A stretch of 64,000 nucleotides of DNA from Kiritimatiellia bacterium (GTDB lineage: Bacteria > Verrucomicrobiota > Kiritimatiellia > JAAZAB01): the NCBI GenBank assembly GCA_028718125.1, contig JAQUMN010000016.1, positions 12,041 to 76,040 on the forward strand. The letters are read 5' to 3'. Below the pieces are notes generated by a model. It was not told the origin of the DNA. It worked only from the letters and a program-made list of their open reading frames with translations, and ran no database searches. This document shows positions 1-37,684 of the stretch, piece by piece (position 1 is the stretch's first letter; each line of letters starts with the position of its first letter). A program made the position numbers and the translations under genes.

Positions 1-857
1 GCGTCATGTGCCCGCACGAAAAAATGCAGCGTCCCCAGGGGATCATGCCGTGGGAAACGTTCACGAAAATCATAGACGATTGCAAAACCTTTGAAGGGCG
101 CGGGCTGGTGCTGATTCTTCACAAGGATGGCGAGCCGCTGCTGGACCCGCTCCTGTGCCGGCGGATCGGGCACATTCGCGCCACCCTCAAAAAAAGCAAG
201 ATCATGTTCAGTTCGAACGGGGCCGCGCTTACCGAAAAAATAGCCGACGAGCTTCTGCGGTGCCCGCCGGACCAGATCGGCTTCAGCGTGGACGGCGCTT
301 CAGCCGCAACTTATGAAAGCATTCGGACCGGATTGCGCTATGCCACGGTGGTAGAGAACATCCACGCGTTCCTTGCCAAGCGCAAGGCATCCGGCGCCAA
401 GGTGCGGGTGGTCATCCAGATGGTCACGAACCTGACCAATCAACCGGAACACGACGAATATCTCCGGATCTGGGGCCCGGAAGCGGATGAAATCGTATTT
501 AAAGACATGCACAATTTTCTCGTGCAGGGCACATCCGTACGTGGCGCCGGGTTATACCGTGAGCAGAAATACAGGTGCATCCAGCCATTCACCCGGTCCG
601 TGATTTACTGGAACGGGGATCTTGCCCTTTGCTGCTGGGATTGCGATCACGCGTATGCGCTGGGCAACGTGATGGACAAGGACCTGGTCACCCTGTTCAA
701 CCAGCCGGCGTTCGACCCGGTGCGCAGGGCCATGGCTAGGAAGGAATGCAAGGGCATTACGCTCTGCAATGTATGCACGCAGATTTACGGAGAGGATAAT
801 CCCCTTGGCGTGCGCCGGCGCCCGGCGGACGCGCCCGAGACCGATCCCGCCCGGTGA
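1..857 (+). CDS. radical SAM / SPASM-domain protein (5' end cut by window edge)
   Basis: ORF 6..857 is in frame from window start. Cys-rich C-terminal SPASM/twitch-like region (LALCCWDCDH ... ITLCNVC). The CxxxCxxC cluster is presumably upstream of the window. Confidence 0.6.
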   Translation, partial: VMCPHEKMQRPQGIMPWETFTKIIDDCKTFEGRGLVLILHKDGEPLLDPLLCRRIGHIRATLKKSKIMFSSNGAALTEKIADELLRCPPDQIGFSVDGASAATYESIRTGLRYATVVENIHAFLAKRKASGAKVRVVIQMVTNLTNQPEHDEYLRIWGPEADEIVFKDMHNFLVQGTSVRGAGLYREQKYRCIQPFTRSVIYWNGDLALCCWDCDHAYALGNVMDKDLVTLFNQPAFDPVRRAMARKECKGITLCNVCTQIYGEDNPLGVRRRPADAPETDPAR

Positions 858-890
858 CGGGTTGTTCCGCCTATTATTCGAAAGCGCCGT

Positions 891-1934
891 ATGCCGAGTC
901 TCCGTCAGTTCAAACATAAATTGGCATCAGGCCTCGCCTGGCTGCCCGTTTCCCTGTCCCGGCGGCTGAACTGCCGGCGGCCGATGATCGCGGTGTATCA
1001 CGTTGTCAGCGATCACCCCCATCCGCATTACCGGCATATCCTGGAATGTAAGAGCGCCGAGGACTTTGCCAAGGACATGGATTTCCTCCTGCGCCACTAT
1101 GCGCCGCTGGATCTTAAGCAGCTTATCGATGCGGTCAGGAACGGCCGGCCGATGAGCAACCGGACATTTCATGTTACCTTTGACGACGGGCTGCGCGACA
1201 CATGGATCAATGCCGGGCCGATTCTCAGGCAGAAAGGGATCCCGGCCACGTTTTTCCTGAACACGGCGTTCATCGACAACCGCGCCATGGGCTACCGGCA
1301 CAAGACAAGCCTGCTGATCGAGCGGCTGGCCAGGGAGCCGGCCGGGGAATTGAGGGGACAGATTGAGTGCATCCTGGGCGGCGCCGGGATTCCCGGCCGG
1401 ACGGAAGAAGAGCGCATCTTCAGGGTACGGTACCGCCAGGCGGGATTACTGGACAACATCGCGCGGGTTCTGCAGGTGGACTTTGCGGAGTACCTGGCCG
1501 GGCAGCAGCCGTACATGACCGGCGGCGACATTGAAGACCTGATCAAGCAGGGGTTTACCATTGGCGCCCACAGCATTGACCACCCATACTATGCGGATCT
1601 AACCCCAGACGAGCAGTTGCGGCAGACCCGTGAAAGCGTTGAATACCTGGTCGGACGTTTTGCGCTGCCGTACCGCGCGTTTGCGTTTCCTTATGCGGAC
1701 ATCGGGGTTTCCCCGGTTCTTTTTGACATTGCCCGCAAGACTGGTATGCTCGATATTAGCTTCGGCACATGCGGCGTGAGGGAGGACGCCTGCCGCATGA
1801 ATCTGCAGCGAACCATGATGGATGGATACGGCCTGTCGGCCAGGCAGCGCATCGTCAATGCATACCTCGGATACTCACTGCGGGCCCTGGTTGGCCGCGG
1901 CAGGATCAACAGGAACGATACTCATGCGCGGTGA
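891..1934 (+). CDS. polysaccharide deacetylase (NodB-homology / ArnD-PgaB-like) family protein
   Basis: Motifs HVTFDDGLRDT, ATFFLNTAF, IGAHSIDHP are typical of the carbohydrate esterase 4 / NodB fold. ATG at 891. Confidence 0.7.
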   Translation: MPSLRQFKHKLASGLAWLPVSLSRRLNCRRPMIAVYHVVSDHPHPHYRHILECKSAEDFAKDMDFLLRHYAPLDLKQLIDAVRNGRPMSNRTFHVTFDDGLRDTWINAGPILRQKGIPATFFLNTAFIDNRAMGYRHKTSLLIERLAREPAGELRGQIECILGGAGIPGRTEEERIFRVRYRQAGLLDNIARVLQVDFAEYLAGQQPYMTGGDIEDLIKQGFTIGAHSIDHPYYADLTPDEQLRQTRESVEYLVGRFALPYRAFAFPYADIGVSPVLFDIARKTGMLDISFGTCGVREDACRMNLQRTMMDGYGLSARQRIVNAYLGYSLRALVGRGRINRNDTHAR

Positions 1935-2715
1935 GGAAACACGTGCTGCGGAATACTGGGACATGGAAGCCAGGCGCTATGAACAGCTGGCATCGGCGGA
2001 AAACGCCCGCCGGATTTACCCCATGCACGAATTCCGCAACAAGTATGTCCTTGAGTTGCTTGGCGACAAGCCCTGCCGCCATCTCGAGATAGGGTGCGGG
2101 CCCGGCCGGGCGATCCTCGGGCTCATGCAACAGGGATGGCGCGAGGTGTCCGGAGTGGACATATCGCCCGGGATGATCGAGCTGGCTAAGCGCACCATAG
2201 CCGGCGCGGGTTATGATCCGGCGCAGGCGGACCTTAAAACCGCCGGCATCGAGGCGCTGCCCTTCAAGGACGGCACGTTCGATTCCGTTGCCTGCGTGGG
2301 CGTGATCGAGTATATCCGGGACGAGGATTCGGCCCTGAGGGAAATCGCCCGGGTCATGAAGCCCGGCGGCAACCTGGTGATAACCGTGCGCAACAGGATG
2401 TGCCTATACCGGCCGTCTGATCTGGTGGCGCCCCTGCTTCACCGGGTGCAAGGCGGCGAACACGGCGCGTGGTTCCGGACGCATATTCCCTGGAAGTTCT
2501 CCGGGAAACTGGCGCAGCACGGCCTGGTGAAAAAGGCGCACGCCTACTATCATTTTTACGTTGTGCCGGCCCCGTTCGACCGGTATCTGCACGGGCGCTG
2601 GCTGGCGCCGGCCATCGCCATGGAACGGCTGTCCGCATGCGGGATTTCAGCCCTGCTGGCGTCCGGGCTCATCGTAAAGGCGCAAAAAAATCGCAATCCG
2701 GAAAAAGGAGATTAG
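1924..2715 (+). CDS. class I SAM-dependent methyltransferase
   Basis: SAM-binding motif LEIGCGPGRAI plus VMKPGGNLVI. First in-frame ATG at 1924 overlaps the deacetylase stop by 11 nt. Confidence 0.7.
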   Translation: MRGEETRAAEYWDMEARRYEQLASAENARRIYPMHEFRNKYVLELLGDKPCRHLEIGCGPGRAILGLMQQGWREVSGVDISPGMIELAKRTIAGAGYDPAQADLKTAGIEALPFKDGTFDSVACVGVIEYIRDEDSALREIARVMKPGGNLVITVRNRMCLYRPSDLVAPLLHRVQGGEHGAWFRTHIPWKFSGKLAQHGLVKKAHAYYHFYVVPAPFDRYLHGRWLAPAIAMERLSACGISALLASGLIVKAQKNRNPEKGD

Positions 2716-2717
2716 CC

Positions 2718-4796
2718 ATGACAAGGACTATGACAAAGCGGATGGGTGTCGTGAACCAGATGGCCCTGGCAGCCATCGTATTGTGGGCGATCGGTTTGTC
2801 CGGCGCGGGCTGGGCGCAAAAGGAGGGCGATGCTTCCGCGCCCAATGCCAAACAGCAGGTGCTGGCCAAACAACGCGAATTCAAACAGGTTGCCGCGGCC
2901 AATCCGGATTCGCCCGAACTTGCCGCCGCGATGCGCGACTATGAAACCGCGGTCACGGCCCTCGAAGACGGACGACCGGAGGAGGCGTTGCACATTTTGA
3001 ACGGGGCCATTGCCAGGCTGTCGCCGGGTGCTGCCCAAAAAAGTTCCGCGGCAGGCGATAAGTCATCGAAATCGGGTGATGAGACATCAAAACCAAGTGG
3101 TGAACAATCAAAGTCCGGCAGCGAGCCATCGAAGGCCGGCAGTAAATCGAGCGGCCGCGCGGACAAGGCCACGTGGGAAACCAGCCTGCGCCAGTTCAAG
3201 CGTCTGCACACGGCCAAGGTGGAGCAGGGCCAGGACGCTTCCGCCGCCATGAACAAATATGGCGAAGCGGAGCAAATGGGGCAGCAAGGCGATTGGGTTG
3301 GGGCGCAAAGCAAGATCAATGAAGCCATTGCGCTGTTGCAGGCGGATGGTTCCGCCCCGGCCGGAAAGAGCGCGGCTGGCGCAAAAAGGCCGTCGGGCGC
3401 GAGCATCGGCCCGCAGGTGGCGAGCGTCGTGAGCAGCGCGGTAATTGCCGGGGGCCCTTACCCGAACTCGCCTTTCGGCATGCATCCCGCCCGGAGCGAG
3501 GACACGGCGGATCCTTATGCGTTTGCCTTGGATATCGGCGTGCGTTTCGACCGGCTGCGTTCCTATTTCATGTGGGGCGAGATCCAGCAGGATATTAATC
3601 AAAGGGTCTATGTCTGGGATGCGCCGCTCAAGGGCTCTATCGGCTATGATACGTTGATGCTCTCGGTGCCGCAGGGCATGTGCGTCGTGGCCAACATCAG
3701 CGGGGCGCCCTATTATAACGGGGATTCCTTTACGCCGGTGGATACCGAGGCCTATACGGCCTTCGTGCGCGCCGTGGTGGAACGGTATGACGGCGATGGC
3801 GTCCAGGACATGCCGGGGTTGAAAGCGCCCATCAAATACTGGCAGGTGGAGAACGAGCCGCTGCCCGGCCAGGCGGACTATGCCGACCTGCTGCGCATCA
3901 CGGCGACGGCCATCAAGGCCGCCGACCCGGCCGCGACCGTGCTGGCGGCGGGCATCGTCCCCATGATGGATTCGCGGGGACGCTTCAGCCCGGACGCCTT
4001 GCGCATTTACAAAAAAAATATGATCGAAAAAATGTCCACAGCCGCGGTCGATGTTTTCGATATCCATTACTACGGCAACGCCGTGGGCGATTATCGGAAA
4101 TTCAAGGACCTGTATGACTATTACCGGCAGGCCCTGGACCAGCAGGGGCTGTCGAGCGTTAAGATCTGGGTCACCGAGATGGGCACCTACAGCGGGGCGC
4201 CGCAGGGCAAGGAAACCGAAAAGGTGATGCATGTGCCGGCCGGGGCATCCACCTACCAGTCCGAGGCGCTGCAGGCGGCCGACGTGCTGAAACGCTATGT
4301 CTTTACGCTTTCCCTCGGGGTCAAGAAGGTTTTCCTGGCCTTCGGTCTGAAGGAAGGATTTGAGAATAACGGTAATTTCTTCGACATGACCGGACTGGTT
4401 TTCGACGGACGTTTTGCCAACGACCGCGGCAACAACGTTCCGAAAATCGCATACTATACCTACAAGATGATGGCCGAAAAACTTGCCGACTACGATATGA
4501 GTCAGATCGAGAGCATTGCCGTTGCCCGGAAAAACGTATCGGTCTACAAAATCAGCAAAGCCAATTCATCGGAATATCTCTACGTGGCGTGGTGGGACTG
4601 GTTTAACGAGCCGCAAGGTCTTCAAGGCGTCGCCTGCCGCGTGGAATTGCCCTTTGCCGGCCGCACGGCGGCGGCCATCACGCAGGCCGTGACGGGTCTT
4701 CAGGGCCAGCGCACGACGGAGCGCATCCCGGTGCAGGACAATAAGATTCCGATCCAGCTGGGCCAAAGCCCGGTTTTCGTGGAACGCAGCAACTGA
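2718..4796 (+). CDS. secreted glycoside hydrolase, clan GH-A (GH5/GH39-like), with Ser/Lys-rich linker
   Basis: RBS AAAGGAG before ATG 2718. N-terminal signal peptide (MTRTMTKRMGVVNQMALAAIVLWAIGLSGAGWA). Low-complexity S/K/G-rich linker. Catalytic acid/base-like WQVENEP and nucleophile-like IWVTEMG about 125 aa apart, as in clan GH-A. Confidence 0.55.
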   Translation: MTRTMTKRMGVVNQMALAAIVLWAIGLSGAGWAQKEGDASAPNAKQQVLAKQREFKQVAAANPDSPELAAAMRDYETAVTALEDGRPEEALHILNGAIARLSPGAAQKSSAAGDKSSKSGDETSKPSGEQSKSGSEPSKAGSKSSGRADKATWETSLRQFKRLHTAKVEQGQDASAAMNKYGEAEQMGQQGDWVGAQSKINEAIALLQADGSAPAGKSAAGAKRPSGASIGPQVASVVSSAVIAGGPYPNSPFGMHPARSEDTADPYAFALDIGVRFDRLRSYFMWGEIQQDINQRVYVWDAPLKGSIGYDTLMLSVPQGMCVVANISGAPYYNGDSFTPVDTEAYTAFVRAVVERYDGDGVQDMPGLKAPIKYWQVENEPLPGQADYADLLRITATAIKAADPAATVLAAGIVPMMDSRGRFSPDALRIYKKNMIEKMSTAAVDVFDIHYYGNAVGDYRKFKDLYDYYRQALDQQGLSSVKIWVTEMGTYSGAPQGKETEKVMHVPAGASTYQSEALQAADVLKRYVFTLSLGVKKVFLAFGLKEGFENNGNFFDMTGLVFDGRFANDRGNNVPKIAYYTYKMMAEKLADYDMSQIESIAVARKNVSVYKISKANSSEYLYVAWWDWFNEPQGLQGVACRVELPFAGRTAAAITQAVTGLQGQRTTERIPVQDNKIPIQLGQSPVFVERSN

Positions 4797-4850
4797 TAAC
4801 AGTCGGCTGTTCAACCGGCGCCGTTCGTGGCGGCCCACGCCGGGCATGGC

Positions 4851-6410
4851 ATGCTTAGCGGCCGAGGGGAAGACGTGAATCACAGCAGACAGCTATCGGT
4901 GACGCTGAAGGTGCTGGCCGGCGTAGTGGCGGGCGCCGGTGCCGGCCTGGCCGCGGCGATATTTCCGTGGCAATTGCTTTTGGTCATCCTGCCTTTGGCT
5001 GTGTTCGTTTTATGGGGGCTGATTGATTCCCGCATGGCCGTTTGCGTGGTCCTGAGCACGGCGTTCTTTGTCCAGGCGGAATGCGTTGCGCGGACCAATC
5101 ACCTGGCGGTCACGATCGGCCTCTTCCCCGATGCGCTGACCGTTCAACTGCCCTATATTTACTTCTCGGTCACCGCCCTGTATGTGTTCTGGTACGGGCT
5201 GGGGGCGCTGGCCGCGCGCCGACTGCGCTGGAGCGGCAACAGCTATCTGCCGCCCTTGCTGGGGCTATTGGCTTATTCCCTGGTCACGCTTTGCTGGACG
5301 CGCAACGGGAACTGGTCGTTCGTGTGGCAGGTTTACTTTACGGCCCATCTCCTGTCCTTCTGTCTCGTCTACGGATTACTCGACCGGTATACAAAAATCA
5401 GGCAGGTCATGCGGTGGATGGTTGTCGTCGGGACGGTCAATGCCGTTATCACGGTGATCTTTCTCTTCCTGGAACCGGTGTCGCTTAAGTTCGAGCTGGC
5501 CGACCATGCCACGCTCAGCCTGCTGACGGGCGGCGGGGGCTTGAATGCCGTTGTGCGCCATTCGACGGGCACATTCGGCCGCCGAACCTTGCTCGTTGAT
5601 TTTCACCTGAGTCCGACCATCGCGAATATTCTCCTGGCCATATGCGTCGGCTTGCTCGTCAGCCGGCGGCAGAACCGGGTTAGTTACGGGGTGCTGGCGT
5701 GCATGGCGCTGCTGTTTCTCTACCAGAGCACAACCGGCGACGCCCGCGCGCCGTTCGTCGGCCTGGTCATGATGGTCGGCTACCTGCTGCTGACGGTCCC
5801 GCAACTGCGCAACCGGATGGTCCTATATGGCAGCGTTGTCGTGATATGCACGGCGGTGTTTGTGGGGACGGATATCCACTTGCGCCGGCTCATATCGAAT
5901 GAGCCGGAGTATTCGCGGGTCCTGTCGCTGATTCCCGTGGTGGGCGGGGAACTGGCCGGCGGACGGGGCGAGTGGACGGTGGACGCGAGCGGCTCGGTGC
6001 AGTCGGCGGCCCGGAGCGGACTTTTTGCGCAGGGGTTCAAGCATTTTCTGGTGTCCGACGCCCTGGGGGGCGGGACGGAAAATGCCCGGTTGCCGGCGCC
6101 GCAAGGGGAAGGCTTGTACGTGCATAATCTGTGGCTGTCGCTGCTGCAGGATTTTGGACTGCCGGGGATGGCGTGCGTCATCTGGTTTGGCCTTGTTTTT
6201 TTCAAGAGTTACCTGGGGCTCGTGCGTGCGCCCGACAGCGAACGCCGGATACTCGGCCTGGCGGCGACGGGCGGGGTGGTGGCCATCCTGGTAACAAGCC
6301 TCGCCGATTTCGTGTATGATGATCCTTTTTTGTGGCCGACCCTGGGCTTGATCGCCGCCGCCATGGATCGGGCGAGGACGGAAGAGAGCCCCGCCAATCC
6401 GGCGGAGTGA
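4851..6410 (+). CDS. O-antigen ligase / polymerase-like (Wzy_C family) polytopic membrane protein
   Basis: About 10 predicted TM helices. A periplasmic loop carries a His motif (VHNLWLSLLQDFGLPG) as in the WaaL/Wzy_C family. Start is uncertain (GTG 4827 or ATG 4851). Confidence 0.5.
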   Translation: MLSGRGEDVNHSRQLSVTLKVLAGVVAGAGAGLAAAIFPWQLLLVILPLAVFVLWGLIDSRMAVCVVLSTAFFVQAECVARTNHLAVTIGLFPDALTVQLPYIYFSVTALYVFWYGLGALAARRLRWSGNSYLPPLLGLLAYSLVTLCWTRNGNWSFVWQVYFTAHLLSFCLVYGLLDRYTKIRQVMRWMVVVGTVNAVITVIFLFLEPVSLKFELADHATLSLLTGGGGLNAVVRHSTGTFGRRTLLVDFHLSPTIANILLAICVGLLVSRRQNRVSYGVLACMALLFLYQSTTGDARAPFVGLVMMVGYLLLTVPQLRNRMVLYGSVVVICTAVFVGTDIHLRRLISNEPEYSRVLSLIPVVGGELAGGRGEWTVDASGSVQSAARSGLFAQGFKHFLVSDALGGGTENARLPAPQGEGLYVHNLWLSLLQDFGLPGMACVIWFGLVFFKSYLGLVRAPDSERRILGLAATGGVVAILVTSLADFVYDDPFLWPTLGLIAAAMDRARTEESPANPAE

Positions 6411-6429
6411 CTTACGGCAGCGCGATACG

Positions 6430-7878: not shown

Positions 7879-7985
7879 TAATTTTTTCGCGATATTGGAG
7901 GGCGGAGCTCCGGCGACGCCGTTGGTTTCAGCATGAATGACGCAGCCGTGGTCCGTATGTGACGTGGACAGGAAAGGGCATTGAC

Positions 7986-11275: not shown

Positions 11276-11373
11276 TTTATCCGTCTGGAACTGCATAACC
11301 TGCATAAGAAACAAGCCTCATGGAATCCTGCCGGGGCGAACAGGTTGGCGTCATCCTTCTCCACGGACGCCGT

Positions 11374-11428
11374 GTGAGGGCACACGGCCTACAGAAAATA
11401 ACCGAAATTGTAGGACCGGTGCCCTCAC
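11374..11428. repeat. long imperfect hairpin (~20-bp stem, 15-nt loop) in intergenic region
   Basis: GTGAGGGCACACGGCCTACA ... TGTAGGACCGGTGCCCTCAC. The arms are near-perfect reverse complements. Confidence 0.6.
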
Positions 11429-11464
11429 CGGGCGTGGGCTGGCCGAGAATAGCGAAGCCCGTGC

Positions 11465-11490
11465 CGTGAAAAGTCTGTCGTGAAAAGTCT
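11465..11490. promoter_or_regulatory. tandem direct repeat CGTGAAAAGTCT x2 upstream of DegT operon (candidate operator)
   Basis: Exact 12-nt unit repeated with a 14-nt period, about 135 bp upstream of ATG 11624. Confidence 0.35.
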
Positions 11491-11623
11491 TGCTATCCCG
11501 CCCGGCGCCGGTTATGATTGCAAACATTAGGGTGGTGGAGTTTGGATAACTGCTGGCCGGCATGGCGGGTGAGCGTCAAGAGTGCGACAGCGTTGACCAT
11601 GAATACAGCGACGGAGGGTAGCC

Positions 11624-12739: not shown

Positions 12740-12754
12740 GCAAGGAAGCCGCAC

Positions 12755-14050: not shown

Positions 14051-14097
14051 GGCGGGCATAGGCGCCGCCGGCCTGAATGCTAAGGAGTTTAAATCCG

Positions 14098-14168: not shown

Positions 14169-14233
14169 AGATTTCAGCGGCCGCCTTTGGCCTAATTAAT
14201 TTGCTGCCATGATTTCCAGAGAGAGGGAATCCC

Positions 14234-15013: not shown

Positions 15014-15035
15014 GCGTTGGAGGTGCAGGGTCGCT

Positions 15036-16484: not shown

Positions 16485-16509
16485 ACGTTCTTAACTCAGG
16501 TCATCAGCC

Positions 16510-17424: not shown

Positions 17425-17610
17425 TCAGGGGAATTTTCCGCCAGAGGCGGATCCGCCTACGGCGGACAATCCGTAGCGGTTCTAACCTGCCCGCAGTGCT
17501 ACGCACAGCGTTGCAGGCGGGCCATCATCCGGTGTAGAGGCCGTTCGATAGAACGGCAAAGTCGCCCCACTTCGGGGCCTAATGGTCATAATAAGACGGT
17601 TCTTCAGGCT

Positions 17611-18765: not shown

Positions 18766-18801
18766 TTGTATCGAGTATGGCTGCCGATTTTGATTTTCAG
18801 G

Positions 18802-19851: not shown

Positions 19852-19907
19852 GGATTAATTCAATCATGGTAGATGCGCTTGTGTCAAGCGCAACGCCGTT
19901 TCTTCGG

Positions 19908-21392: not shown

Positions 21393-21565
21393 GGCGGGCT
21401 AACGCCCGCAACCCAAGAGAATTAACCACGGATTTCACGGATAGAGAGCCACATATTAAAATAAAAAGGACTCTGTTTTTGTAAGAGCCGTGCCCATCCG
21501 TGTTGTCCGTGGGTCCGCCTGTGCGGATCCGCCGGGGCGGAAAAAATCTTTGCTGGCGCAGCTCC

Positions 21566-24010
21566 TCAGTACGCGCCCTTGCCGCGCAGGACGATGGGAA
21601 TCGTCTTGAGTAAAATGGTCAGATCGAGCAGCAGGGATTGATTCTTGATGTAGTAGAAATCGTACTCCAGGCTTTCATGCAAGGGCAGGTCTTTCCTGCC
21701 CATGATCTGCCAAAGTCCGGTCAGTCCCGGCTTGACTTTCAGCCGCTGGCGTTCCCAGCTCTTGTATTTTTCCACAATGAACGGCATTTCCGGCCGGGGA
21801 CCCACCAGGCTCATTTCCCCCTTGAGAACATTGATCAATTGAGGGAATTCGTCGAGGCTGGTTTTCCTCAGGAACTTGCCGACCTTGGTAATGCGGGGGT
21901 CGCCCGGGGCGGACGGCGAGTAATCGAACTGGGGAACATTGGAATGCATTGTGCGGAATTTGAAGATCCTGAAAATCCTGCCGTTCTTTCCCACCCGTTC
22001 CTGCCTGAACACGGCCGACCCATGGCTCTCCAGCCTGATCGCGATCGTGATAACGATCCAGATGGGCAGCGTAACAACCAGTATGAAAGCAGAGGCGGTA
22101 ATATCCAGCAGCCGCTTGACGGCCATGGAGAGCAATTCGGCCGGTTCGTTTTTGAGATAGGTGATCGGAAGACTGTTTTCCTCGAACATGTCAACTTCGC
22201 CCGCGATCATGTCGAATATGCTGGATACGATGTGAAAATGGACACCGCGCCGACCGCCGTGGCGATCCAGAATATCGATCAGCTCGTCCTGCGGCAGGAA
22301 GGGCAGGGACACGAACACGTCGGTAACCTTGAATTGTTCAATAAGCTTCCCGAGATCAGCGAGCGACCCCACGATTTCGTGCCCGTCAATTTTCCGGCCA
22401 ACCTCATCCGGCGCCTGGCTCACAAAACCCACAATGTCACTGGCCAGCGCCGACGTGTTTTCGAGTTTGCGCGCGATCAGCATGGCCAGCTCCCCCGTTC
22501 CGGCGATCATGACGCGGGGTGTGGGCTCTCCGCCGGTAACGCGCACATAGTGAGCGTAGAGCTTGCGTGCGCACGACCTGAGGATCGCGGTAAAAACCCA
22601 GAGGTAGAAACAAAGCAGGACCAGGATCAGGCGCGAGTGCGGGCTCTTTGTGAGGTAAAGGACGGCCATGAACATGATGCCGATATAGGTCACGGCCTTG
22701 GTCAGCACCACGAATTCAGTGACTTCCGAGAATGTCCGTGCGGGCTTGTAGAGCCCGGAAACGAAGAACACGGCGAGGATCAGCACGAAAGCGATGGGTA
22801 CAAACTGAAGATACATGTCGATGGGGAAATCGGGCGCGTGAAACACGCGATCGAGGATATAGCCCCAGGTGGCATGCGCGGCAATCAGCGCACAGCAAAT
22901 CGCAAGAACATCGCCGAGCAGGATCAAAAAGACCTGGCTGAAACGGCCCTGGCGCATCCAACGCGGCAGCAGACTCCAAAGGATACCCAGGCCCATCGCC
23001 AGCCCGCGGGCAAACAGCATGAAAGGCGAAACCAGGAGCAGGAACAGTCCTTTCATCGGCGGCTGGCGAGTTAACGCCATGAAAAGCGGTATGGCGCTCA
23101 AAATGAAAAGCGCCAGGCAGATATATAAAAATATTTGGTACTTCCCAAAATACAGCCAGACGGCCAGCGCGGCGAGTATCATGAACGACAGCAAAATCTG
23201 GAGTTTGAGGGTTTGGGGAGTGTATGAGTCGGACTTGATTTTTTCAGGATAAGTCCGGTAAACCGCCATCCGCCAGAATGCGCGGCCAAATTTCTGCTTG
23301 AGATATTTAAAGATTGTGGCGGGATGGCGATGGTAAACCGCGGCGGCCGGGTTGAATACCAGTTTGTAGCCTTTTGAGGCCAGGCGGTATGAAAAATCAA
23401 CGTCTTCATTGTTGGCTTCAGGGAATGAGGTGTCAAAGCCTCCCAGCGAGGCAAAAACAGTCTTCTTGAATGCCGCAGAATACGTGTCGATAAAATCAAC
23501 ATACTTCAATTTCCGCATCTTCCTGTAGCGGCCTTCGAATTCCATCTGCGCGAAGCGCGCAACAACGCTCTCCTGCCGTGTCCGGTACACGCCTTTTACG
23601 CCGGTTATTTCCGTGCTTGTATCCGAAAAGGGGCGGCACATCTCCTGCAGCCAGTTCGTCGCCGGCTCGCAGTCGGCATCCGTAAAAACCAGGATTTGTC
23701 CCTCGGCTTCCCTGGCCCCGTGATTTCGCGCCGATGCCGGGCCCTGGTTCGTCTGCCGAAAATACCGGATTATGGGGGATCCGCTTCGAGCGGCGTATTG
23801 GCGCACTACCTCGGGCGTAGTGTCGGTTGATCCGTCGTCGACAACGATCACTTCGTAGCGATCGGCGGGGAAGTCTTGAGATACGAGCGCATTCAGGCAG
23901 GCGGGCAAAGTATCAGCGCCGTTGTATGCGGGAACAACAACCGACGCGTAGATGGCAGTGTTTGAGGCGGCCTTATCAGGTTGGCTTTCTTTCCCGTCAG
24001 GAACATTCAT
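21566..24010 (-). CDS. fusion protein: N-terminal GT2 glycosyltransferase + TM region + WbaP/WcaJ-type polyprenyl-phosphate hexose-1-phosphate transferase (bacterial sugar transferase domain)
   Basis: GT2: VVVPAYNGADT ... VVDDGSTD ... TDAD. C-terminus: full PGPT catalytic domain (LVGPRPE ... GLTGLWQI ... DLTILLKT) preceded by a Rossmann/CoA-binding-like segment. Start taken at ATG 24010 (MNVPDG). Confidence 0.7.
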   Translation of the reverse strand: MNVPDGKESQPDKAASNTAIYASVVVPAYNGADTLPACLNALVSQDFPADRYEVIVVDDGSTDTTPEVVRQYAARSGSPIIRYFRQTNQGPASARNHGAREAEGQILVFTDADCEPATNWLQEMCRPFSDTSTEITGVKGVYRTRQESVVARFAQMEFEGRYRKMRKLKYVDFIDTYSAAFKKTVFASLGGFDTSFPEANNEDVDFSYRLASKGYKLVFNPAAAVYHRHPATIFKYLKQKFGRAFWRMAVYRTYPEKIKSDSYTPQTLKLQILLSFMILAALAVWLYFGKYQIFLYICLALFILSAIPLFMALTRQPPMKGLFLLLVSPFMLFARGLAMGLGILWSLLPRWMRQGRFSQVFLILLGDVLAICCALIAAHATWGYILDRVFHAPDFPIDMYLQFVPIAFVLILAVFFVSGLYKPARTFSEVTEFVVLTKAVTYIGIMFMAVLYLTKSPHSRLILVLLCFYLWVFTAILRSCARKLYAHYVRVTGGEPTPRVMIAGTGELAMLIARKLENTSALASDIVGFVSQAPDEVGRKIDGHEIVGSLADLGKLIEQFKVTDVFVSLPFLPQDELIDILDRHGGRRGVHFHIVSSIFDMIAGEVDMFEENSLPITYLKNEPAELLSMAVKRLLDITASAFILVVTLPIWIVITIAIRLESHGSAVFRQERVGKNGRIFRIFKFRTMHSNVPQFDYSPSAPGDPRITKVGKFLRKTSLDEFPQLINVLKGEMSLVGPRPEMPFIVEKYKSWERQRLKVKPGLTGLWQIMGRKDLPLHESLEYDFYYIKNQSLLLDLTILLKTIPIVLRGKGAY

Positions 24011-24292
24011 TATGACCAGCCTCCGGATAATATCAATCTCACTAATGAAATTGTATAAGGCACTTGGCCTGAATTTGCAAGTGAAGATTGTCCGGGAGAA
24101 CACGCGTGGTCGCTTTCTTCCTTGACCTCCAAATCCCCCCCGCGTATTTTGCATACCTATGACCAGGCCCGCAACCTTTACCCGCTCAGGGCGGTGCCAG
24201 GCTCATCGCCGAACTCGTGCGTCCTCTTTTTCACGTTGTTCCCGTAGCCGGGGCAGAGGACAATCGGTAATTTTGGCGCAACGGGGTATTTC

Positions 24293-26215
24293 ATGAACTG
24301 GATCTTCTGGTTGAGCCTCAATCTTTTCCTTGTCTATGTTAATGCGAAATTTTTCGCCAGAATTTATCCCCAGCACGGGGTGCCCTATCAGATGGCGCTT
24401 CTGTCAAGCACGGCCCATGCCCTGTTCTTGACGTGCGTGCTGGCCATCTTGCGCGACAAACTTCGCAATTGGGTCAAGCCGGGTTCATGGAAAGAGAGCG
24501 CCTTTTACGTTATTGTCGGGCTATTGGCTGCCGCGTATGTCATTAACTCAGCCATTTACTGCATCTTCGGGTTTGATCTTCCGTTAATCTTGAGCTACTT
24601 CCGGACGGGTGGCGCTACGGAAATTGTTGCTGTTCTGGCGGCAGCCAAAATATCGTCTAATAACACCGCCCTGATCGTGGGATTCATCCTTGCTTTGCCT
24701 TTCGGCCTCTGGTTCTATGCCGTCATCAGCGCAAGGCTTTCCCGCGGCTTTTTCAGGAGCGGAAGCGGGCGGTGTTTGGGGAAAGTGGCGGCGATTATTG
24801 CTTTGGCGGCTTTCCTGGTAATTCCCCTGGAACAAAAGCTAAGCTACAAATACAAGGAGCAGGAAACCTGGCAAAAGGAGCAAAATGCAAGCCTCCTCTA
24901 TTTCCCGTTCTATCAGCCCAAAAACATTCAGCCGTTGGTCCCGGTCCGTATTCTTCCTTATAACCGCATGGATACCCGCGCAGCCCAGGCGCGGTCCGGG
25001 CAAGCGGCTGTTCCCGAGGAAGCAAATGTTTTCCTGATCGTGGCCGAAACCATGCGCTTAAGCTTCATGCAACCGGAGATTGCGCCCAATTTAGCGGCGT
25101 TTGATCTCGAGAATTTGTCGTTTACGCACACTTTGACATCGGCGAACAGCACCCATTACTCCTGGTTTTCCATTTATTATTCGAGCTATCCGTTTTATTG
25201 GAATGCCCAGCGACATCTTCCGGATCAATTAGGTTCGCCGGCGCTGATCGCATTCAAGAATGCCGGGTTTAAAATCCACGTCTTCACGACGGAAGCCAAT
25301 CAAAAGTACCTCGGCTCAGAGACCCTTTATTACGGTGAAAACGGCCGGTTAATTGATGATGTTTACGCCGATCCCTCCGCATACCCGCCGGAAAGCGATC
25401 AGCACGTAATTGACAATTTGCGCGGGCTTTTCAAAACGGGCGCGCCTCCGGGCCGAAATCTCTACGTCATCCACCTGGAGAGCACGCATCACAATTACTT
25501 CTTCACGAAAGAATATAAGCACAAGTTTCAACCCATTGTTACCGACTTCGACTATTTCAAGGTTAACTACTCGTCGGAGTATGTTTTGGGAATGCGGAAT
25601 CGGTACAAAAACTCCCTGGCTTACCTCGACTCTGTTTTTGGTGAATTAATCGGAACATTGAAGGCGGCCGGGATTTACGAGGCGGCAATCATTGGCTTCA
25701 CAGGGGACCACGGCGAAGAATTCATGGAGCACGGCACCCTGACCCACGGCAGCAACCTGTTCGCGCCGCAAACGGAAGTGCCGATTATTTTCCGGATTCC
25801 GGGAAAACGCGGCCAGAAAATTGATCGCGTGGTGGCCGGTATGGATATGCTTCCCACCCTGTTGGATGCTGTAGGGCTCTATGATCCGGTAAGGCCCTTC
25901 CTTTTTGGCAGGTCGGCCCTGAGAGCTCCGGAGCCCGATGCGGGGCAGGGCTGCGTTTTGCTTACAAACGGGCGGGGCGACTTGGTTCCAAAACAGTTCG
26001 CTCTTTTTAACGGCCGCTACAAAATATGCTTTGAACTGGAGGGCTCTAATCCAATGGCCGCAAAATTCATAAGGTTTACCTGGCTTTACGATGATCAGGA
26101 TCGGAAGTTCATTCCAGGTGAAGGCCGGCGTTCAGACTACCTGGCGTTTATACGCAAGGAGTTTGCCGAAGGGATCCGGGGCATAAAATTCATGGAGTTG
26201 GTCGGAGGGATTTAA
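24293..26215 (+). CDS. membrane-anchored sulfatase-superfamily transferase (LtaS/EptA/OpgB-like phosphoethanolamine or phosphoglycerol transferase)
   Basis: N-terminal 5-TM domain plus C-terminal alkaline-phosphatase-superfamily domain (FTGDHGEEF, HxxY region). Confidence 0.65.
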   Translation: MNWIFWLSLNLFLVYVNAKFFARIYPQHGVPYQMALLSSTAHALFLTCVLAILRDKLRNWVKPGSWKESAFYVIVGLLAAAYVINSAIYCIFGFDLPLILSYFRTGGATEIVAVLAAAKISSNNTALIVGFILALPFGLWFYAVISARLSRGFFRSGSGRCLGKVAAIIALAAFLVIPLEQKLSYKYKEQETWQKEQNASLLYFPFYQPKNIQPLVPVRILPYNRMDTRAAQARSGQAAVPEEANVFLIVAETMRLSFMQPEIAPNLAAFDLENLSFTHTLTSANSTHYSWFSIYYSSYPFYWNAQRHLPDQLGSPALIAFKNAGFKIHVFTTEANQKYLGSETLYYGENGRLIDDVYADPSAYPPESDQHVIDNLRGLFKTGAPPGRNLYVIHLESTHHNYFFTKEYKHKFQPIVTDFDYFKVNYSSEYVLGMRNRYKNSLAYLDSVFGELIGTLKAAGIYEAAIIGFTGDHGEEFMEHGTLTHGSNLFAPQTEVPIIFRIPGKRGQKIDRVVAGMDMLPTLLDAVGLYDPVRPFLFGRSALRAPEPDAGQGCVLLTNGRGDLVPKQFALFNGRYKICFELEGSNPMAAKFIRFTWLYDDQDRKFIPGEGRRSDYLAFIRKEFAEGIRGIKFMELVGGI

Positions 26216-26247
26216 AATGCTTGTGCGCTTCTGTTTCCCGGCCGCAT

Positions 26248-27297
26248 TTATAGCTCGGCGCCGGAAGCCAGTTTCAAGCCCGCTTTGCGCACGATTGACC
26301 GTAAATAATCGTCCTGAGGTGTAATCCGCTTCGTAGAATATATCGGAAACAGGCGCTTGAAATGCGCCGGGGTTCCGTCGTGGACCGTGACCGTATTAGC
26401 GCCAGCCATCAATCCCAGGTATTGCCCGCCTCGGCGGGCTTTTTCCAGCGAACTGGTTGTGGGAATCATCCGGTCGGGATACATGATCCGCATCAGCGCC
26501 ATCATGTTCAATGTCAGGTCAAGATCGCCCATCGGTGCAGCAGCGCATTTAGTTTTTTCACCCGGAATGAAGACCGAACAACTCTGCGTGACCAACTTGT
26601 ACTTCCCCAGCAGGTACAGATCGTTGACCAGGTCGTCAGTGGTCTGTCCCGGCAAACCTACCATATTGCCGCTGCCCACCTCGAAACCGGCGCGCAGGAG
26701 GCTTGCGATGCATCCCAGGCGGTGCGCCAGCGTATCGCGCGGCTTTAATTTGCGGTAAAGCTTGGCATTGGAGGTCTCGAACTTCAGAATGTACCATGCC
26801 GCTCCGGCCGCATGCAGTTGCCGGTATTGCGCCGTCTTCATGTTGCCGAGGCAGAGGATGATCTTGAGATCGCGGTGACGCGGCGTCAATGCTTTCAGGC
26901 AGCCGCAGACGTGGTTCACGAAAGTCTTTGAGTCGTTTTCACCCGATTGGATCAGCAGGACCCGCCGCTTCTTGTTATATATGTGATCGGCCAGCGCCAG
27001 GAACTCGGCATGCGTGATCACATAATGTGACTGGCCAATGCGTCCGATGCTGCAAAAATTACACCGCTGATGGCAGATGTTTGAAATCTCAATCACACTG
27101 CGCATTTGGACCGCACGGCTGGGGAAATGCTCTTCACGCCTTTGCCGTGCCAGGGCAAAAAGTTGCCGCTGGGCCGGCCCGCGGAAGGCCAGGGCCTGCG
27201 TCAGCGTTTCCCGACTGTAATCGCCCGTATTAAGTTTCCGAATCAGCATGCACTGCCCGACAATTTGTTCTATGGGACGATGCTTAATTAAATGCAT
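26248..27297 (-). CDS. radical SAM protein (BioB/HydE/ThiH-like)
   Basis: CHQRCNFC cluster near the N-terminus; about 349 aa. Confidence 0.65.
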   Translation of the reverse strand: MHLIKHRPIEQIVGQCMLIRKLNTGDYSRETLTQALAFRGPAQRQLFALARQRREEHFPSRAVQMRSVIEISNICHQRCNFCSIGRIGQSHYVITHAEFLALADHIYNKKRRVLLIQSGENDSKTFVNHVCGCLKALTPRHRDLKIILCLGNMKTAQYRQLHAAGAAWYILKFETSNAKLYRKLKPRDTLAHRLGCIASLLRAGFEVGSGNMVGLPGQTTDDLVNDLYLLGKYKLVTQSCSVFIPGEKTKCAAAPMGDLDLTLNMMALMRIMYPDRMIPTTSSLEKARRGGQYLGLMAGANTVTVHDGTPAHFKRLFPIYSTKRITPQDDYLRSIVRKAGLKLASGAEL

Positions 27298-27320
27298 AGG
27301 AATTTCAATCCGCCTTTGTT

Positions 27321-27381
27321 GTCATTCCGAGCGTAGCGAGGAATCTCGCCGCGAGAGATCCTTCACTGCGTTCAGGATGAC
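27321..27381. repeat. 27-nt-arm inverted repeat (GTCATTCCGAGCGTAGCGAGGAATCTC / GAGATCCTTCACTGCGTTCAGGATGAC), small palindromic element
   Basis: Arms pair 27/27 in the +-strand RNA if G-U wobbles are allowed (3 A/C mismatches in the - strand sense). 7-nt loop. Confidence 0.6.
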
Positions 27382-27395
27382 AATTCGAACAGAAT

Positions 27396-27426
27396 AAAAA
27401 TCGCCCCGCCCTGCGGGGCTTAGTTT
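27396..27426. terminator. candidate bidirectional rho-independent terminator
   Basis: AAAAA-GCCCCGC-CCT-GCGGGGC-TTAGTTT: 7-bp GC stem flanked by an A-run on one side and T-rich sequence on the other. Confidence 0.45.
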
Positions 27427-27723
27427 AAATTGATCGCCCTCCCAAAAAACGCAAAAGTTAACCAGACCACGCCATATTTTCCAAGCGAAAACAATTTTAA
27501 CCTGAATCTTTGAAAAAGAATAGTTCATAAATCCATACCTGTCAATCCTTAACTAAAGAGCTGTGGCGGGAAAATTTTCCGGTTCGTTATACGGGCTTGA
27601 CGCAACGGGACGCGGCCAGCGGTGCGAACGGTCCATCGCCAATATTTTCACGTGCAGGCTTGAGCCAAAACTAATGTGAAATTGTAATGTAAAAATCGTG
27701 AAAAAGCCAGTGCCCGGCTTGGC

Positions 27724-27733
27724 GGGGGGGGGG
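27724..27733. repeat. homopolymeric G10 tract in intergenic region
   Basis: cttggcGGGGGGGGGGagaggg. Confidence 0.8.
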
Positions 27734-27845
27734 AGAGGGCGCAACGAGCGTGTCTTGCGCAACTGCATTCACAAAGATACTTGGGCCGCCTAGTATGTTG
27801 CCGGAACCAATGCGGGGGAGTTGCTGCGGCATGTCGATGGATATG

Positions 27846-28670
27846 TTAAGAGCGATGCTTGCGGTGGATTTTTTTCAGCAGTCCCGGTGTGATTTCTTTG
27901 CCCCGGTATAACACATTATTAAGGAATTTACGCCGCGAAATCCCCCATTTCTTTCGAAAGTAGGCCTTGGAATCAATCAATTCTTTATCGTCATATCTGG
28001 ACACGGTCTTGCGCGCAAAGTGATAAACCAGGCTTGTGCCCACGCCAATAAACAGACTACAGCCATAATTGTACATTTTCATGGCCAAATCAGGATCACT
28101 TCCAAATCCCGGGAAGTAATTTTCGTCGAAACCGCCAATGGCATCCCAATTAGATTTTGGGATTACCGACGGCGTCCAGGTGCTGAACATATTATACGGG
28201 CGCTTGAGCTTCCGGTAATCGCGCAGGAGATCATCTTCACGAAAGTTCTGGGGCGAGGTGCCGTAATCGCAGAACCCTATCGCACATGGATTGGCCTTTC
28301 CCGGCTCAACAGGCGTGCTTGAAATCCAGATTTTGTCGCTTATCTCCAGATATGGTTGAAGCGCCATATCCCAGCCGGGCAGCGGATACATATCGTCGTT
28401 CATGTAGCAAATGTAGTCTGTCGTCGCCAGTTTCGCCGCGCGGTTAACTGCGGCGCAAACGCCGAGATTTACAAGCGAAGAATCGGAAATAACCGCCTTG
28501 CCGGCGACCCACTTTTCCGCTTCCTCCCCATATTCATTGAAAAACACGATGATTTCATGCTCAATCGTGCTGTTAAGCTTCACCCCTTTGTAGACTAGAT
28601 CCAGTAATGCAATATTCTTCCAGGAAGGAATGATTACGGAAAATTGCTTCATTGTTGTTGATCTTGACAT
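27846..28670 (-). CDS. GT2 family glycosyltransferase
   Basis: FSVIIPSWKN ... DDDMYPLPGW-type GT-A features. Lower GC than neighbours. Confidence 0.6.
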   Translation of the reverse strand: MSRSTTMKQFSVIIPSWKNIALLDLVYKGVKLNSTIEHEIIVFFNEYGEEAEKWVAGKAVISDSSLVNLGVCAAVNRAAKLATTDYICYMNDDMYPLPGWDMALQPYLEISDKIWISSTPVEPGKANPCAIGFCDYGTSPQNFREDDLLRDYRKLKRPYNMFSTWTPSVIPKSNWDAIGGFDENYFPGFGSDPDLAMKMYNYGCSLFIGVGTSLVYHFARKTVSRYDDKELIDSKAYFRKKWGISRRKFLNNVLYRGKEITPGLLKKIHRKHRS

Positions 28671-37668: not shown

Positions 37669-37684
37669 CATCGGTGAGGACTCT

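Follow-up and report, generated by a model that had tools for sequence, protein, structure and literature searches.

Why would a locus for the assembly of a surface glycan harbour several radical S-adenosylmethionine (SAM) genes, and do their products act on the glycan? This question is raised by a 64,000-nucleotide stretch of DNA from a Kiritimatiellia bacterium (GenBank assembly GCA_028718125.1, contig JAQUMN010000016.1, positions 12,041 to 76,040 of the forward strand), hereafter the window, whose numbering is used for all its features. Bases 1–28,670 of this part of a metagenome-assembled genome form a probable Wzx/Wzy-type glycan locus resembling those for lipopolysaccharide (LPS) core, and four radical SAM genes, designated (a) to (d), are interspersed among its glycosyltransferase (GT) genes. 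We read the segment as an anaerobe's Wzx/Wzy locus for a surface glycan of LPS-core or O-antigen-like type, in which three of the radical SAM enzymes would tailor sugars and the fourth probably would not, and we put the probability of this reading at roughly 60%. Three of the families recur in glycan clusters of anaerobes, a distribution that points to oxygen-independent radical chemistry probably directed at surface sugars.

Radical SAM genes and their conserved partners

Assignment to the radical SAM superfamily was judged by the Pfam gathering cut-offs, which are 29.5 bits for Radical_SAM (PF04055), 21.5 bits for SPASM (PF13186), 32.1 bits for the B12-binding domain (PF02310) and 22.2 bits for BATS. 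All four open reading frames (ORFs) are genuine radical SAM genes: they reach 36 to 81 bits against PF04055, and the three complete proteins contain the CxxxCxxC motif (C179/183/186 in (b), C246/250/253 in (c) and C75/79/82 in (d)). A preliminary description of this DNA, made from the letters alone, had placed radical SAM genes at these four positions, and this is borne out. Gene (a) (1–857, plus strand, frame 3, ORF 6–857) encodes a radical SAM/SPASM protein with 36.0 bits for Radical_SAM and 34.6 bits for SPASM; the window edge cuts its N-terminus, and just the last cysteine of the motif is visible. Genes (b) (12755–14050, plus strand, 431 amino acids) and (c) (plus strand, ORF 19842/19908–21392) combine a radical SAM domain (80.9 and 68.7 bits) with an N-terminal B12-binding domain (51.7 and 58.9 bits), which in (b) is a Rossmann domain of B12-binding-like type. 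The start of (c) most likely lies at 19926, where the protein begins with the family consensus MKIWVLNPPF, and not at 19842 or 19908, giving a gene of 19926–21392 for 488 amino acids. Gene (d) (26248–27297, minus strand) scores 59.9 bits for Radical_SAM and stays under the BATS cut-off with 20.1 bits. The products of (b), (c) and (d) each match an NCBI protein from a metagenome-assembled Kiritimatiellae genome at 100% identity. Judged by profile scores, none of the four belongs to a curated family among those tested (HpnJ, AprD4, HydE, BioB and others). The more specific labels of the preliminary description fared differently. SPASM applies to (a), and B12-binding applies to (b) and (c) at the domain level, yet the nearest structure of the latter two, AprD4, is free of cobalamin; the HydE/BioB-like label of (d) holds as a resemblance and fails at the HydE and BioB cut-offs. 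Within the window the enrichment is weak, with radical SAM genes making up 4 of the 20 genes of the locus and none of the 19 ORFs scanned past ~29 kb (hypergeometric p ~0.06). We thus turned to comparative genomics to examine whether the association is due to chance.

Gene (b) is preceded by a gene for a DegT/DnrJ/EryC1-type sugar aminotransferase (11624–12739, plus strand, Pfam 280 bits), whose top NCBIfam matches are 4-aminotransferases (WecE-like, 220 bits; PseC, 214 bits), all under their cut-offs. The (b) protein likewise reaches no NCBIfam cut-off, its top match being HpnJ with 123 bits against the required 577.6, and its AlphaFold2 model (pLDDT 87.9) has AprD4 as top fold in the PDB (TM-score 0.75). 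At least 1,259 proteins are homologous to it at E ≤ 1e-10, and the orthologues listed share 46–66% identity. DegT orthologues (49–65% identity) adjoin the (b) orthologues in all 13 loci compared. Besides the window, the pair was found in an unclassified bacterium (L002/L003), in Omnitrophota (L004/L005) and in a Nanoarchaeia archaeon of the DPANN group (L006/L007), with DegT immediately adjacent every time, identities to the window of 57–65% for DegT and 54–60% for (b), and family 2 glycosyltransferases (GT2s), methyltransferases, flippases and epimerases in the surroundings. A metagenome scan added 10 orthologues of (b) at ≥45% identity, with DegT adjacent in 9 of the 9 whose flank was long enough; below ~42% identity to (b) this adjacency is lost. 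In an all-against-all comparison of the 13 loci, no genes except DegT and (b) were present throughout; class-I methyltransferases and GT2s recur in subsets, and no constant 4,6-dehydratase neighbour of the short-chain dehydrogenase/reductase (SDR) type was found across them. DegT and (b) thus form a two-gene cassette that is inherited jointly, and always in glycan loci, in Kiritimatiellia, Omnitrophota, unclassified bacteria and DPANN archaea. The GT2 gene that follows (b) in the window (14234–15013) was considered as a further member and rejected, as it is unlike the GT2s of the other DegT-(b) loci. L002 and L003 additionally contain genes that run off the loci (L002 18740–19601, L003 16775–17636) and encode proteins of 856–884 amino acids in which B12-binding and Radical_SAM domains are fused to Glycos_transf_1; in the Rosetta-stone sense, such a fusion of a family 1 glycosyltransferase (GT1) with a radical SAM domain is a direct physical link between both enzyme classes. 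In the nanoarchaeal locus L006 (11434–13481), a gene resembling the RuBisCO large subunit and a nucleoside triphosphate (NTP)-transferase gene come after the DegT-(b) pair.

Gene (c) encodes a B12-domain radical SAM protein paralogous to HpnJ. It aligns with positions 3–468 of the 472 in the HpnJ profile TIGR03471 at 400.6 bits, under the equivalog cut-off of 577.6 bits, and is 34% identical to an annotated Paraburkholderia HpnJ over 485 residues (E 7e-97), compared with 50–89% inside its own clade and 63–89% among its top 120 matches. Its AlphaFold2 model (pLDDT 78.5) again has AprD4 as top PDB fold. Homologues at E ≤ 1e-10 amount to 5,978 proteins, and a scan using one genome per species found carriers of (c) in at least 542 species, which include Desulfobacterota, Nitrospirota/Thermodesulfovibrionia, Planctomycetota with the anammox bacteria Kuenenia and Brocadiaceae, Verrucomicrobiota, Anaerolineae and some archaea.

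In the window, (c) is convergent with a minus-strand gene (21566–24154) for an 862-residue protein that combines a membrane GT2 (GT21-like domain at residues ~70–400) with a polyprenyl-phosphate glycosylphosphotransferase (phosphoglycosyltransferase, PGT; CoA_binding_3 plus Bac_transf). The PGT half (residues 414–862) scores 396.8 bits against EPS_sugtrans (TIGR03025), above the cut-off of 295.55 bits, and provides the initiating polyprenyl-phosphate glycosylphosphotransferase of a Wzx/Wzy locus. On its other side (c) is divergent from an extended SDR gene of the NAD-dependent epimerase/dehydratase family (NAD, nicotinamide adenine dinucleotide; 18802–19851, minus strand, Pfam 145 bits), with HpnA as top NCBIfam match (167 bits, cut-off 367). 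The neighbourhoods of (c) were counted in its best 80 loci, with the testable loci as denominators. An orthologue of the GT2 domain (~45–55% identity) starts directly 3′ of (c) in 44 of 76 loci, a DUF362-ferredoxin gene lies directly 5′ in 31 of 71, an LpxL-like gene is located ≤10 kb upstream in 23 of 46, and a gene for a family 9 glycosyltransferase (GT9) of ≥40% identity is found ≤5 kb away in 16 of 52. Which partners accompany (c) depends on the lineage: DUF362-ferredoxin, GT9 and LpxL-like genes in Desulfobacterota and Nitrospirota, or an SDR together with the initiating PGT in the Planctomycetota-Verrucomicrobiota-Chlamydiota (PVC) group and others. The string LpxL-like, GT9, DUF362, (c) and GT2 of L008–L010 is orthologous to window positions 16510–24154 (30–51% identity for the LpxL-like protein, 47–54% for GT9, 66–67% for (c) and 46–49% for GT2), and two other loci resemble the window more closely. 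L077 has the order GT4, GT4 (family 4 glycosyltransferases), SDR (49% identical to 18802–19851), (c), GT2, PGT and SDR, and in L073, from a verrucomicrobial genome, (c) is followed at once by a GT2::PGT fusion of 812 amino acids (5942–8380) like that of the window. SDR orthologues (49–57% identity) lie directly 5′ of (c) orthologues in L076, L077 and L089. The fusion of GT2 to an enzyme that primes undecaprenyl phosphate places the (c) cassette in polyprenyl-linked glycan assembly rather than in hopanoid metabolism.

A homologue of (c) with 43% identity is encoded on Lawsonia intracellularis plasmid 1 in a heptose-type glycan locus, whose other genes code for GT2s and five class-I methyltransferases, for GalE, an SIS isomerase and a GHMP kinase, for an NTP-transferase/HAD fusion and for a further radical SAM protein. 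Together with the GT9 neighbours, this context makes heptose a candidate substrate of (c), which we regard as a lead only. Three side observations concern relatives of (c). In the delta-proteobacterial loci L008 (58–5818) and L010 (1–3686), an array of three or four B12-domain radical SAM genes, in tandem and divergent from one another, is found directly 5′ of the LpxL-like/GT9/DUF362/(c)/GT2 string, and the L008 array also includes a sulfotransferase-like gene. GT2 and PGT form a single polypeptide in the window and L073 and are separate genes in other phyla (L077). Finally, a gene for an LPG_synthase_TM (flippase-like) protein adjoins hpnJ-hpnI in Paraburkholderia (L176, 6001–9741).

Gene (a) heads the same-strand gene string of the locus. 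Its product passes the SPASM/twitch test, as seen from the PF13186 score, and a check of its auxiliary-cluster cysteines, suggested in the preliminary description, turned out positive, with seven C-terminal cysteines at residues 192–258 that would serve one or two auxiliary [4Fe-4S] clusters, four of these cysteines (C192, C210, C255 and C258) being kept in remote relatives. No NCBIfam family reaches its cut-off with (a), the best being metalloenzyme and tungsten-cofactor maturases, and no relative was found among PDB entries by sequence. The subfamily is small (29 clusters at 50% identity, E ≤ 1e-30; nearest representative 54% identical). L009 contains a 53% orthologue between a flippase and an LpxL-like gene, along with the (c) cassette, a Wzy_C gene and a glycoside hydrolase (GH)-like gene as in the window. 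In L180, a 42% relative is accompanied by a GT4, a Wzm/Wzt-type ABC pair and four further radical SAM genes. Remote relatives (24–30%) are encoded on Brachyspira hyodysenteriae plasmid pBHWA1, Lawsonia plasmid 2 and a deltaproteobacterial plasmid from the cockroach gut. On pBHWA1, seven coding sequences annotated as radical SAM and one with a SPASM domain are interleaved with rfbABCD, rfbF and glycosyltransferase genes, and on the other two plasmids the (a)-like SPASM gene is immediately followed by DegT, AsnB and a methyltransferase. L178 and L179 show a second pairing of radical SAM and DegT, which involves (a)-like SPASM genes and is unrelated to that of (b). Among the 160 loci retrieved for (b) and (c) there is essentially no homologue of (a), apart from a single match at 29%. 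Gene (a) represents a small SPASM/twitch family whose relatives occupy other glycan loci.

Gene (d) behaves differently. Its product aligns over the full length with Thermotoga maritima HydE (171 bits, E 2e-49) and HydE is its best NCBIfam match, with a score under the cut-off (TIGR03956, 180.1 against 254.6 bits); BioB (TIGR00433, 87 against 225 bits) and PylB are likewise not reached. Neither hydF or hydG nor hydrogenase genes occur near (d) in the window or near its orthologues in L011–L013. In these three long contigs the orthologues (55–62% identity) are followed by a HemN_C-like radical SAM gene, with an EamA transporter and class-I methyltransferases close by and no glycan genes around them; the HemN_C-like and EamA partners have no counterpart in the window. 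A likely terminator, consisting of a perfect 7-bp GC hairpin and a T-run on the minus strand (27403–27419), lies between (d) and the upstream GT2 gene of this strand. Owing to this terminator and the non-glycan contexts elsewhere, we do not assign (d) to the glycan pathway: it is most likely transcribed on its own as part of another pathway and probably a bystander in the locus. Adjacency of (d) to the sulfatase-family gene was found only in a close relative (L174), and with identities of 81% and 75% it was rejected as independent support, being synteny by descent. Three further observations were made around the orthologues of (d). The cluster of HydE-like and HemN_C-like (478–508 amino acids) radical SAM, EamA and class-I methyltransferase genes is conserved as such (L011 3597–9129, L012 3505–11497, L013 6748–13179); in two of these genomes its neighbours are giant Big_1/Invasin_D3 proteins and multihaem cytochromes; and in L174 (4561–5649) an LPG_synthase_TM gene adjoins the (d) orthologue at the position where the window has a GT2.

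Membership in a glycan pathway, for which the preliminary description had proposed comparative genomics as a check, is therefore supported for (a), (b) and (c) and not for (d). The link to anaerobic life that it had suggested is corroborated by the carriers, which include Desulfobacterota, anammox Planctomycetota, Thermodesulfovibrionia, Omnitrophota and DPANN archaea.

Proposed sugar chemistry and rival explanations

Radical SAM enzymes are known to tailor sugars in antibiotics, as AprD4, BtrN, DesII and GenK do, and in lipid head groups, as do HpnJ and calditol synthase. In butirosin (BtrN/BtrS) and desosamine (DesI/DesII) biosynthesis, a radical SAM enzyme and a DegT-family enzyme dependent on pyridoxal phosphate catalyze consecutive steps at the same sugar carbon, and in BtrN/BtrS as well as AprD4/AprD3 the radical SAM enzyme is followed by a second enzyme acting on the keto product. 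The same gene pairing is seen for (b) and for the (a)-like SPASM genes of L178 and L179. A B12-like domain, present in the proteins encoded by (b) and (c), is missing from both the twitch-type BtrN and DesII, which is a plain radical SAM enzyme, and the two act on antibiotic precursors; no specific sequence relationship of the window genes to BtrN or DesII was detected in the NCBIfam and PDB sequence searches. We propose that in each of the three enzymes a 5′-deoxyadenosyl radical would abstract hydrogen from a carbon of a nucleotide- or polyprenyl-linked sugar, a step free of O2 that would replace the oxygenase or NAD-dependent chemistry of aerobes. For (b), we judge it most likely that the sugar is oxidised, or dehydrated as a 1,2-diol, to a keto-sugar in the manner of AprD4 or BtrN, and DegT would then transaminate the ketone to an amino(deoxy) sugar. 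Since an aminotransferase requires a keto-sugar and no dedicated NAD-dependent dehydratase accompanies DegT-(b), we favour (b) as the source of the ketone. The pairing of an unrelated SPASM family with DegT suggests that this logic is general in anaerobes.

PDB fold searches with the models of (b) and (c) placed AprD4 first (TM-scores 0.67–0.75), followed by TsrM, QCMT/MgmA, CysS, OxsB and TokK, and AprD4 (6FD2) is also the nearest solved relative of both in PDB sequence searches. AprD4 is a radical SAM 1,2-diol dehydratase that deoxygenates an aminoglycoside sugar and whose Rossmann domain binds no cobalamin (PMC12931638). It resembles (b) and (c) in size, in the N-terminal Rossmann domain and in acting on carbohydrate, and its tandem arrangement with AprD3, the second enzyme for the keto product in apramycin C3′ deoxygenation, is paralleled by DegT for (b) and the SDR for (c). 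It differs in sequence (~20–23% identity) and in belonging to an aminoglycoside antibiotic pathway, and a dehydratase activity of (b) and (c) is what we infer from these parallels only. For (c), HpnJ provides the second point of comparison. This enzyme is required for the conversion of bacteriohopanetetrol-glucosamine to the cyclitol ether, which is thought to proceed via ring contraction (PMC13459092). The two proteins align end to end, a membrane GT2 lies directly 3′ as in hpnJ-hpnI, and the proposed remodelling of a lipid-linked amino-sugar by HpnJ has an analogue in the reaction that we envisage, namely a rearrangement, dehydration or HpnJ-type ring contraction that (c) would perform on a sugar installed by the GT2 on an undecaprenyl-diphosphate-linked primer. 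The SDR beside (c) would act on the resulting product, and the modified units would be flipped by Wzx and then transferred by the polytopic membrane proteins encoded at 4827–11275. The systems differ in that (c) stays under the family cut-off, its GT2 is not HpnI, a YdjC-type HpnK and hopanoid genes are missing from the window and the inspected loci, and the partners of (c) are of LPS or exopolysaccharide (EPS) type (phosphoglycosyltransferase, GT9, LpxL-like, Wzx). HydE, finally, is comparable to (d) in its full-length alignment and family match; the score below the cut-off and the conserved HemN_C-like radical SAM and EamA neighbours in place of hyd genes set (d) apart.

Several points weigh against our reading of the locus. 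Its basis for (a), (b) and (c) is association, with the chemistry throughout a matter of inference, and operon structure is read from gene spacing only. The likeness to AprD4 is generic and at the level of the fold, as the AprD4 family NF033070 gives 83.8 and 91.8 bits with (b) and (c) against a cut-off of 500. The next-best structural matches of both, TsrM, QCMT, CysS and TokK, are class-B cobalamin methyltransferases, and the Pfam B12-binding domains keep C-methylation in play. In the window, the SDR and GT2::PGT genes lie on the strand opposite to (c). The GT2 partner was tried as HpnI and rejected (no NCBIfam HpnI match; BLASTP E 0.13 and 0.57), and the deacetylase at 891–1934, located 18 kb from (c), was rejected as HpnK because it belongs to PF01522 and not to YdjC and is not co-conserved with (c) in the 80 loci. 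Hence, the full HpnI/K/J scheme is not reproduced. An action of (c) on lipid would also be in keeping with its link to an LpxL-like acyltransferase in half of the loci. Lastly, (d) may have a role in decorating the glycan, given its kept adjacency to the sulfatase-family gene in a close relative.

How do other explanations compare? A serious alternative, which we consider possible though clearly the less probable course, is that (b) and (c) encode cobalamin-dependent class-B radical SAM C-methyltransferases that methylate an unactivated sugar carbon, as GenK, GenD1 and Fom3 methylate carbon in antibiotic pathways. It agrees with the B12-binding domains above threshold in both proteins, with the strong structural matches to TsrM, QCMT/MgmA, CysS and TokK (TM-scores 0.6–0.7), with NCBIfam scores of the same order for PhpK, QCMT and KedN5 as for others, and with methylation being the commonest known activity of this superfamily; the PDB fold searches do not tell methylase, dehydratase and rearrangement enzyme apart. 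However, the top match in sequence and fold is the cobalamin-free AprD4, which makes B12-dependent C-methylation just one option, HpnJ as the closest characterised relative of (c) is not a methylase, class-I methyltransferases are already frequent beside DegT-(b), and the strict coupling of (b) to an aminotransferase would be left unexplained. The expectation of unusual sugar chemistry in the preliminary description is supported in part, through the glycan coupling of (a), (b) and (c), and is loosened with regard to C-methylation, the first example it gave. That the radical SAM genes are unrelated passengers, serving cofactor, RiPP (ribosomally made, post-translationally altered peptide) or other pathways and present because anaerobe genomes are rich in such genes, would accord with the weak enrichment in the window, with (d), and with the sub-threshold maturase matches of (a). 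As an account of the locus it is improbable in our view: the partnerships of (b) and (c) are kept across phyla, a conserved synteny that refutes it for these two genes, (a)-type genes appear repeatedly in glycan contexts, and GT-radical SAM fusion proteins exist.

Two further explanations concern the target of (c). According to the one, an outer-membrane glycolipid would be modified by (c), and by the tandem B12-domain radical SAM enzymes of related loci, in its lipid portion and not in a sugar, for instance at the acyl chains of lipid A or in a polyprenyl or an ether lipid. The LpxL-family gene in 23 of 46 loci, the three to four extra B12-domain radical SAM genes beside the LpxL-like gene in L008 and L010, the scores of (c) against the ladderane-lipid model (108.6 bits) and HpnR (78.2 bits), and the many newly found lipid-modifying enzymes that are radical SAM proteins would all suit such a role. 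We nevertheless rank it as a lesser alternative and unlikely, as the most conserved partner of (c) is a GT2 and not an acyltransferase, the (c)-GT2 pair is also found where no LpxL-like gene is present, beside a phosphoglycosyltransferase and in the Lawsonia heptose locus, and HpnJ itself acts on a sugar head group. According to the other, (c) is HpnJ proper and its sub-locus produces a hopanoid cyclitol ether, next to glycan genes by coincidence. HpnJ is by far the best family match of (c) and covers its full length, HpnA is the top match of the SDR, and the order of radical SAM gene and GT2 is that of hpnJ-hpnI. Yet the score below the curated cut-off, the higher identity inside the (c) clade than to HpnJ, the GT2 without significant similarity to HpnI, the lack of hpn or shc genes in the window and the inspected (c) loci, and the fusion of the GT2 to an undecaprenyl-phosphate glycosylphosphotransferase largely refute this possibility, which we deem very improbable. 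Sugar tailoring by (a), (b) and (c) is our preferred reading.

Remaining genes of the locus and its surroundings

Every gene from 1 to 18,765 lies on the plus strand, with intergenic gaps mostly <200 bp. The string led by (a) continues 33 bp downstream with a polysaccharide deacetylase gene (891–1934, PF01522 64.1 bits), followed by a class-I SAM methyltransferase gene (1822–2715, Methyltransf_11 87 bits; the start is uncertain, the ORF overlapping the preceding gene) and a gene for a large protein with one N-terminal transmembrane segment and a weak match to a glycoside hydrolase core (2469–4796, Glyco_hydro_cc 20.1–20.4 bits against a cut-off of 21; start uncertain), a counterpart of which lies upstream of the Wzy_C gene in L009. 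A run of four large polytopic membrane proteins with ~7–13 transmembrane segments each is encoded at 4827–11275. It consists of a Wzy_C-like protein of the polymerase or ligase type (4827–6410, ~10 segments, Wzy_C 26.4 bits against 31.7), a protein weakly resembling GT-C enzymes of the PMT_2/ArnT type (6430–7878, ~7 segments, PMT_2 23.5 bits against 26.1) and two proteins (7959–9647 and 9644–11275, ~13 and 7 segments; G+C content at third codon positions (GC3) 0.75–0.78) that match no family in Pfam or NCBIfam and may be novel GT-C, polymerase or ligase types. Downstream of (b), the GT2 gene at 14234–15013 (259 amino acids, Glycos_transf_2 71.3 bits, GC3 0.80), absent from the gene map of the preliminary description, replaces the minus-strand ORF 14192–15460, which was rejected as spurious, with no family match and a GC3 of 0.65. 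It is followed by genes for a Wzx-type flippase (15036–16484, Polysacc_synt 39.5 bits against 28.2, ~11 transmembrane segments, 37% identity to the L009 flippase), an LpxL/HtrB-family acyltransferase (16510–17424, Lip_A_acyltrans 86 bits, 51% identity to its L009 counterpart), for which every NCBIfam equivalog is far under its cut-off, and a heptosyltransferase-like GT9 (17611–18765, Pfam 134 bits, 47–54% identity to the GT9 of L008–L010) that just falls short of heptosyltransferase III in NCBIfam (169.1 against 170.2 bits). Beyond (c) and the GT2::PGT gene lies a plus-strand gene for a membrane-anchored protein of the sulfatase superfamily, an LtaS/EptA/YejM-like transferase (24293–26215, Sulfatase 93.8 bits, four N-terminal transmembrane segments, weak YejM, EptA and LtaS matches), and past (d) the locus ends with a minus-strand GT2 gene of low G+C content (27846–28670, Glycos_transf_2 30.8 bits, GC3 0.56). 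The neighbours named in the preliminary description are accordingly real for the glycosyltransferases and the flippase and less certain for the ligase-like protein, while its lipid A/core enzymes are confirmed as Pfam families and fail at the equivalog cut-offs.

The G+C content is ~0.60 up to ~22 kb and 0.48–0.56 between 22 and 34 kb. The low-GC stretch (~22000–34000) spans the GT2::PGT gene, the sulfatase-family gene, (d), the terminal GT2 gene and a PAS histidine kinase gene and may be a laterally acquired or variable segment. Past ~29 kb, the window encodes regulators and housekeeping functions of nitrogen and nucleotide metabolism (PAS histidine kinase, sigma-54 activator, type III glutamine synthetase, NadE, GltBD, PurF, PyrG and CarAB). 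Two features of this part were recorded as side observations. An ORF on the minus strand (31562–32752, 396 amino acids) between the PAS histidine kinase and the sigma-54 activator has an N-terminal transmembrane segment, good coding statistics (GC3 0.72) and no Pfam match, and an unusually compact glutamine-dependent run is located on one strand at 35452–52431, comprising type III glutamine synthetase, NAD synthase, GltB, GltD, a PurF-like amidotransferase, CTP synthase, CarB and CarA.

Comparison with known glycan loci and implications

Glycan loci rich in radical SAM genes are already known from Brachyspira and Lawsonia plasmids. As in the window, pBHWA1 and Lawsonia plasmids 1 and 2 carry multiple radical SAM genes among rfb, glycosyltransferase, epimerase and methyltransferase genes, and all three are connected to the window by sequence, Lawsonia plasmid 1 through the 43% homologue of (c), and pBHWA1 and Lawsonia plasmid 2 through relatives of (a) at 24–26%. 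They differ in being plasmid-borne, in their rhamnose or heptose pathways and in that the DegT-(b) cassette was not seen there. A Brachyspira plasmid block comprising a radical SAM gene, a glycosyltransferase, an epimerase and rfbC correlates with virulence (PMC4267127). The statement of the preliminary description that radical SAM tailoring is rare in LPS/EPS clusters thus applies to the characterised literature and not to genomes, in which such loci are common among anaerobes and had been noted on the B. hyodysenteriae plasmid. Our literature search found no characterised radical SAM example in LPS, O-antigen or capsule assembly, an absence from the searched literature that is not proof, and nothing on topic that ties radical SAM enzymes to heptosyltransferase or to Kiritimatiellae. 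The DegT-(b) and (c)-GT2 cassettes appear to be undescribed.

A more far-reaching proposal would be that anaerobes and DPANN archaea employ dedicated radical SAM enzymes to build surface sugars outside the glycobiology of aerobes, with DegT and (b) constituting an amino-deoxy route independent of O2 and NAD, in which transamination would come after radical oxidation or diol dehydration, and with (c) and GT2::PGT carrying out a ring contraction like that of HpnJ or calditol synthase on an undecaprenyl-diphosphate-linked sugar to yield a cyclitol, a carbocyclic pseudo-sugar, in an LPS-like polymer. Taken as a whole we hold this proposal to be speculative and rather unlikely. What the comparison defines are two compact and widespread cassettes, the one consisting of DegT and a B12-domain radical SAM protein of 431 amino acids, the other of an HpnJ paralogue and a membrane GT2, with or without PGT, SDR, DUF362-ferredoxin, GT9 and LpxL-like partners. 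If characterised, they would improve the annotation of thousands of genes that bear no label beyond ‘radical SAM protein’ or carry the wrong names ‘BchE’, ‘YgiQ’ or ‘biotin synthase’, and could help to account for the glycan plasmids of Brachyspira and Lawsonia that are linked to virulence. Both cassettes are concrete targets for enzymology, whose characterisation would widen the known sugar alphabet of anaerobes.

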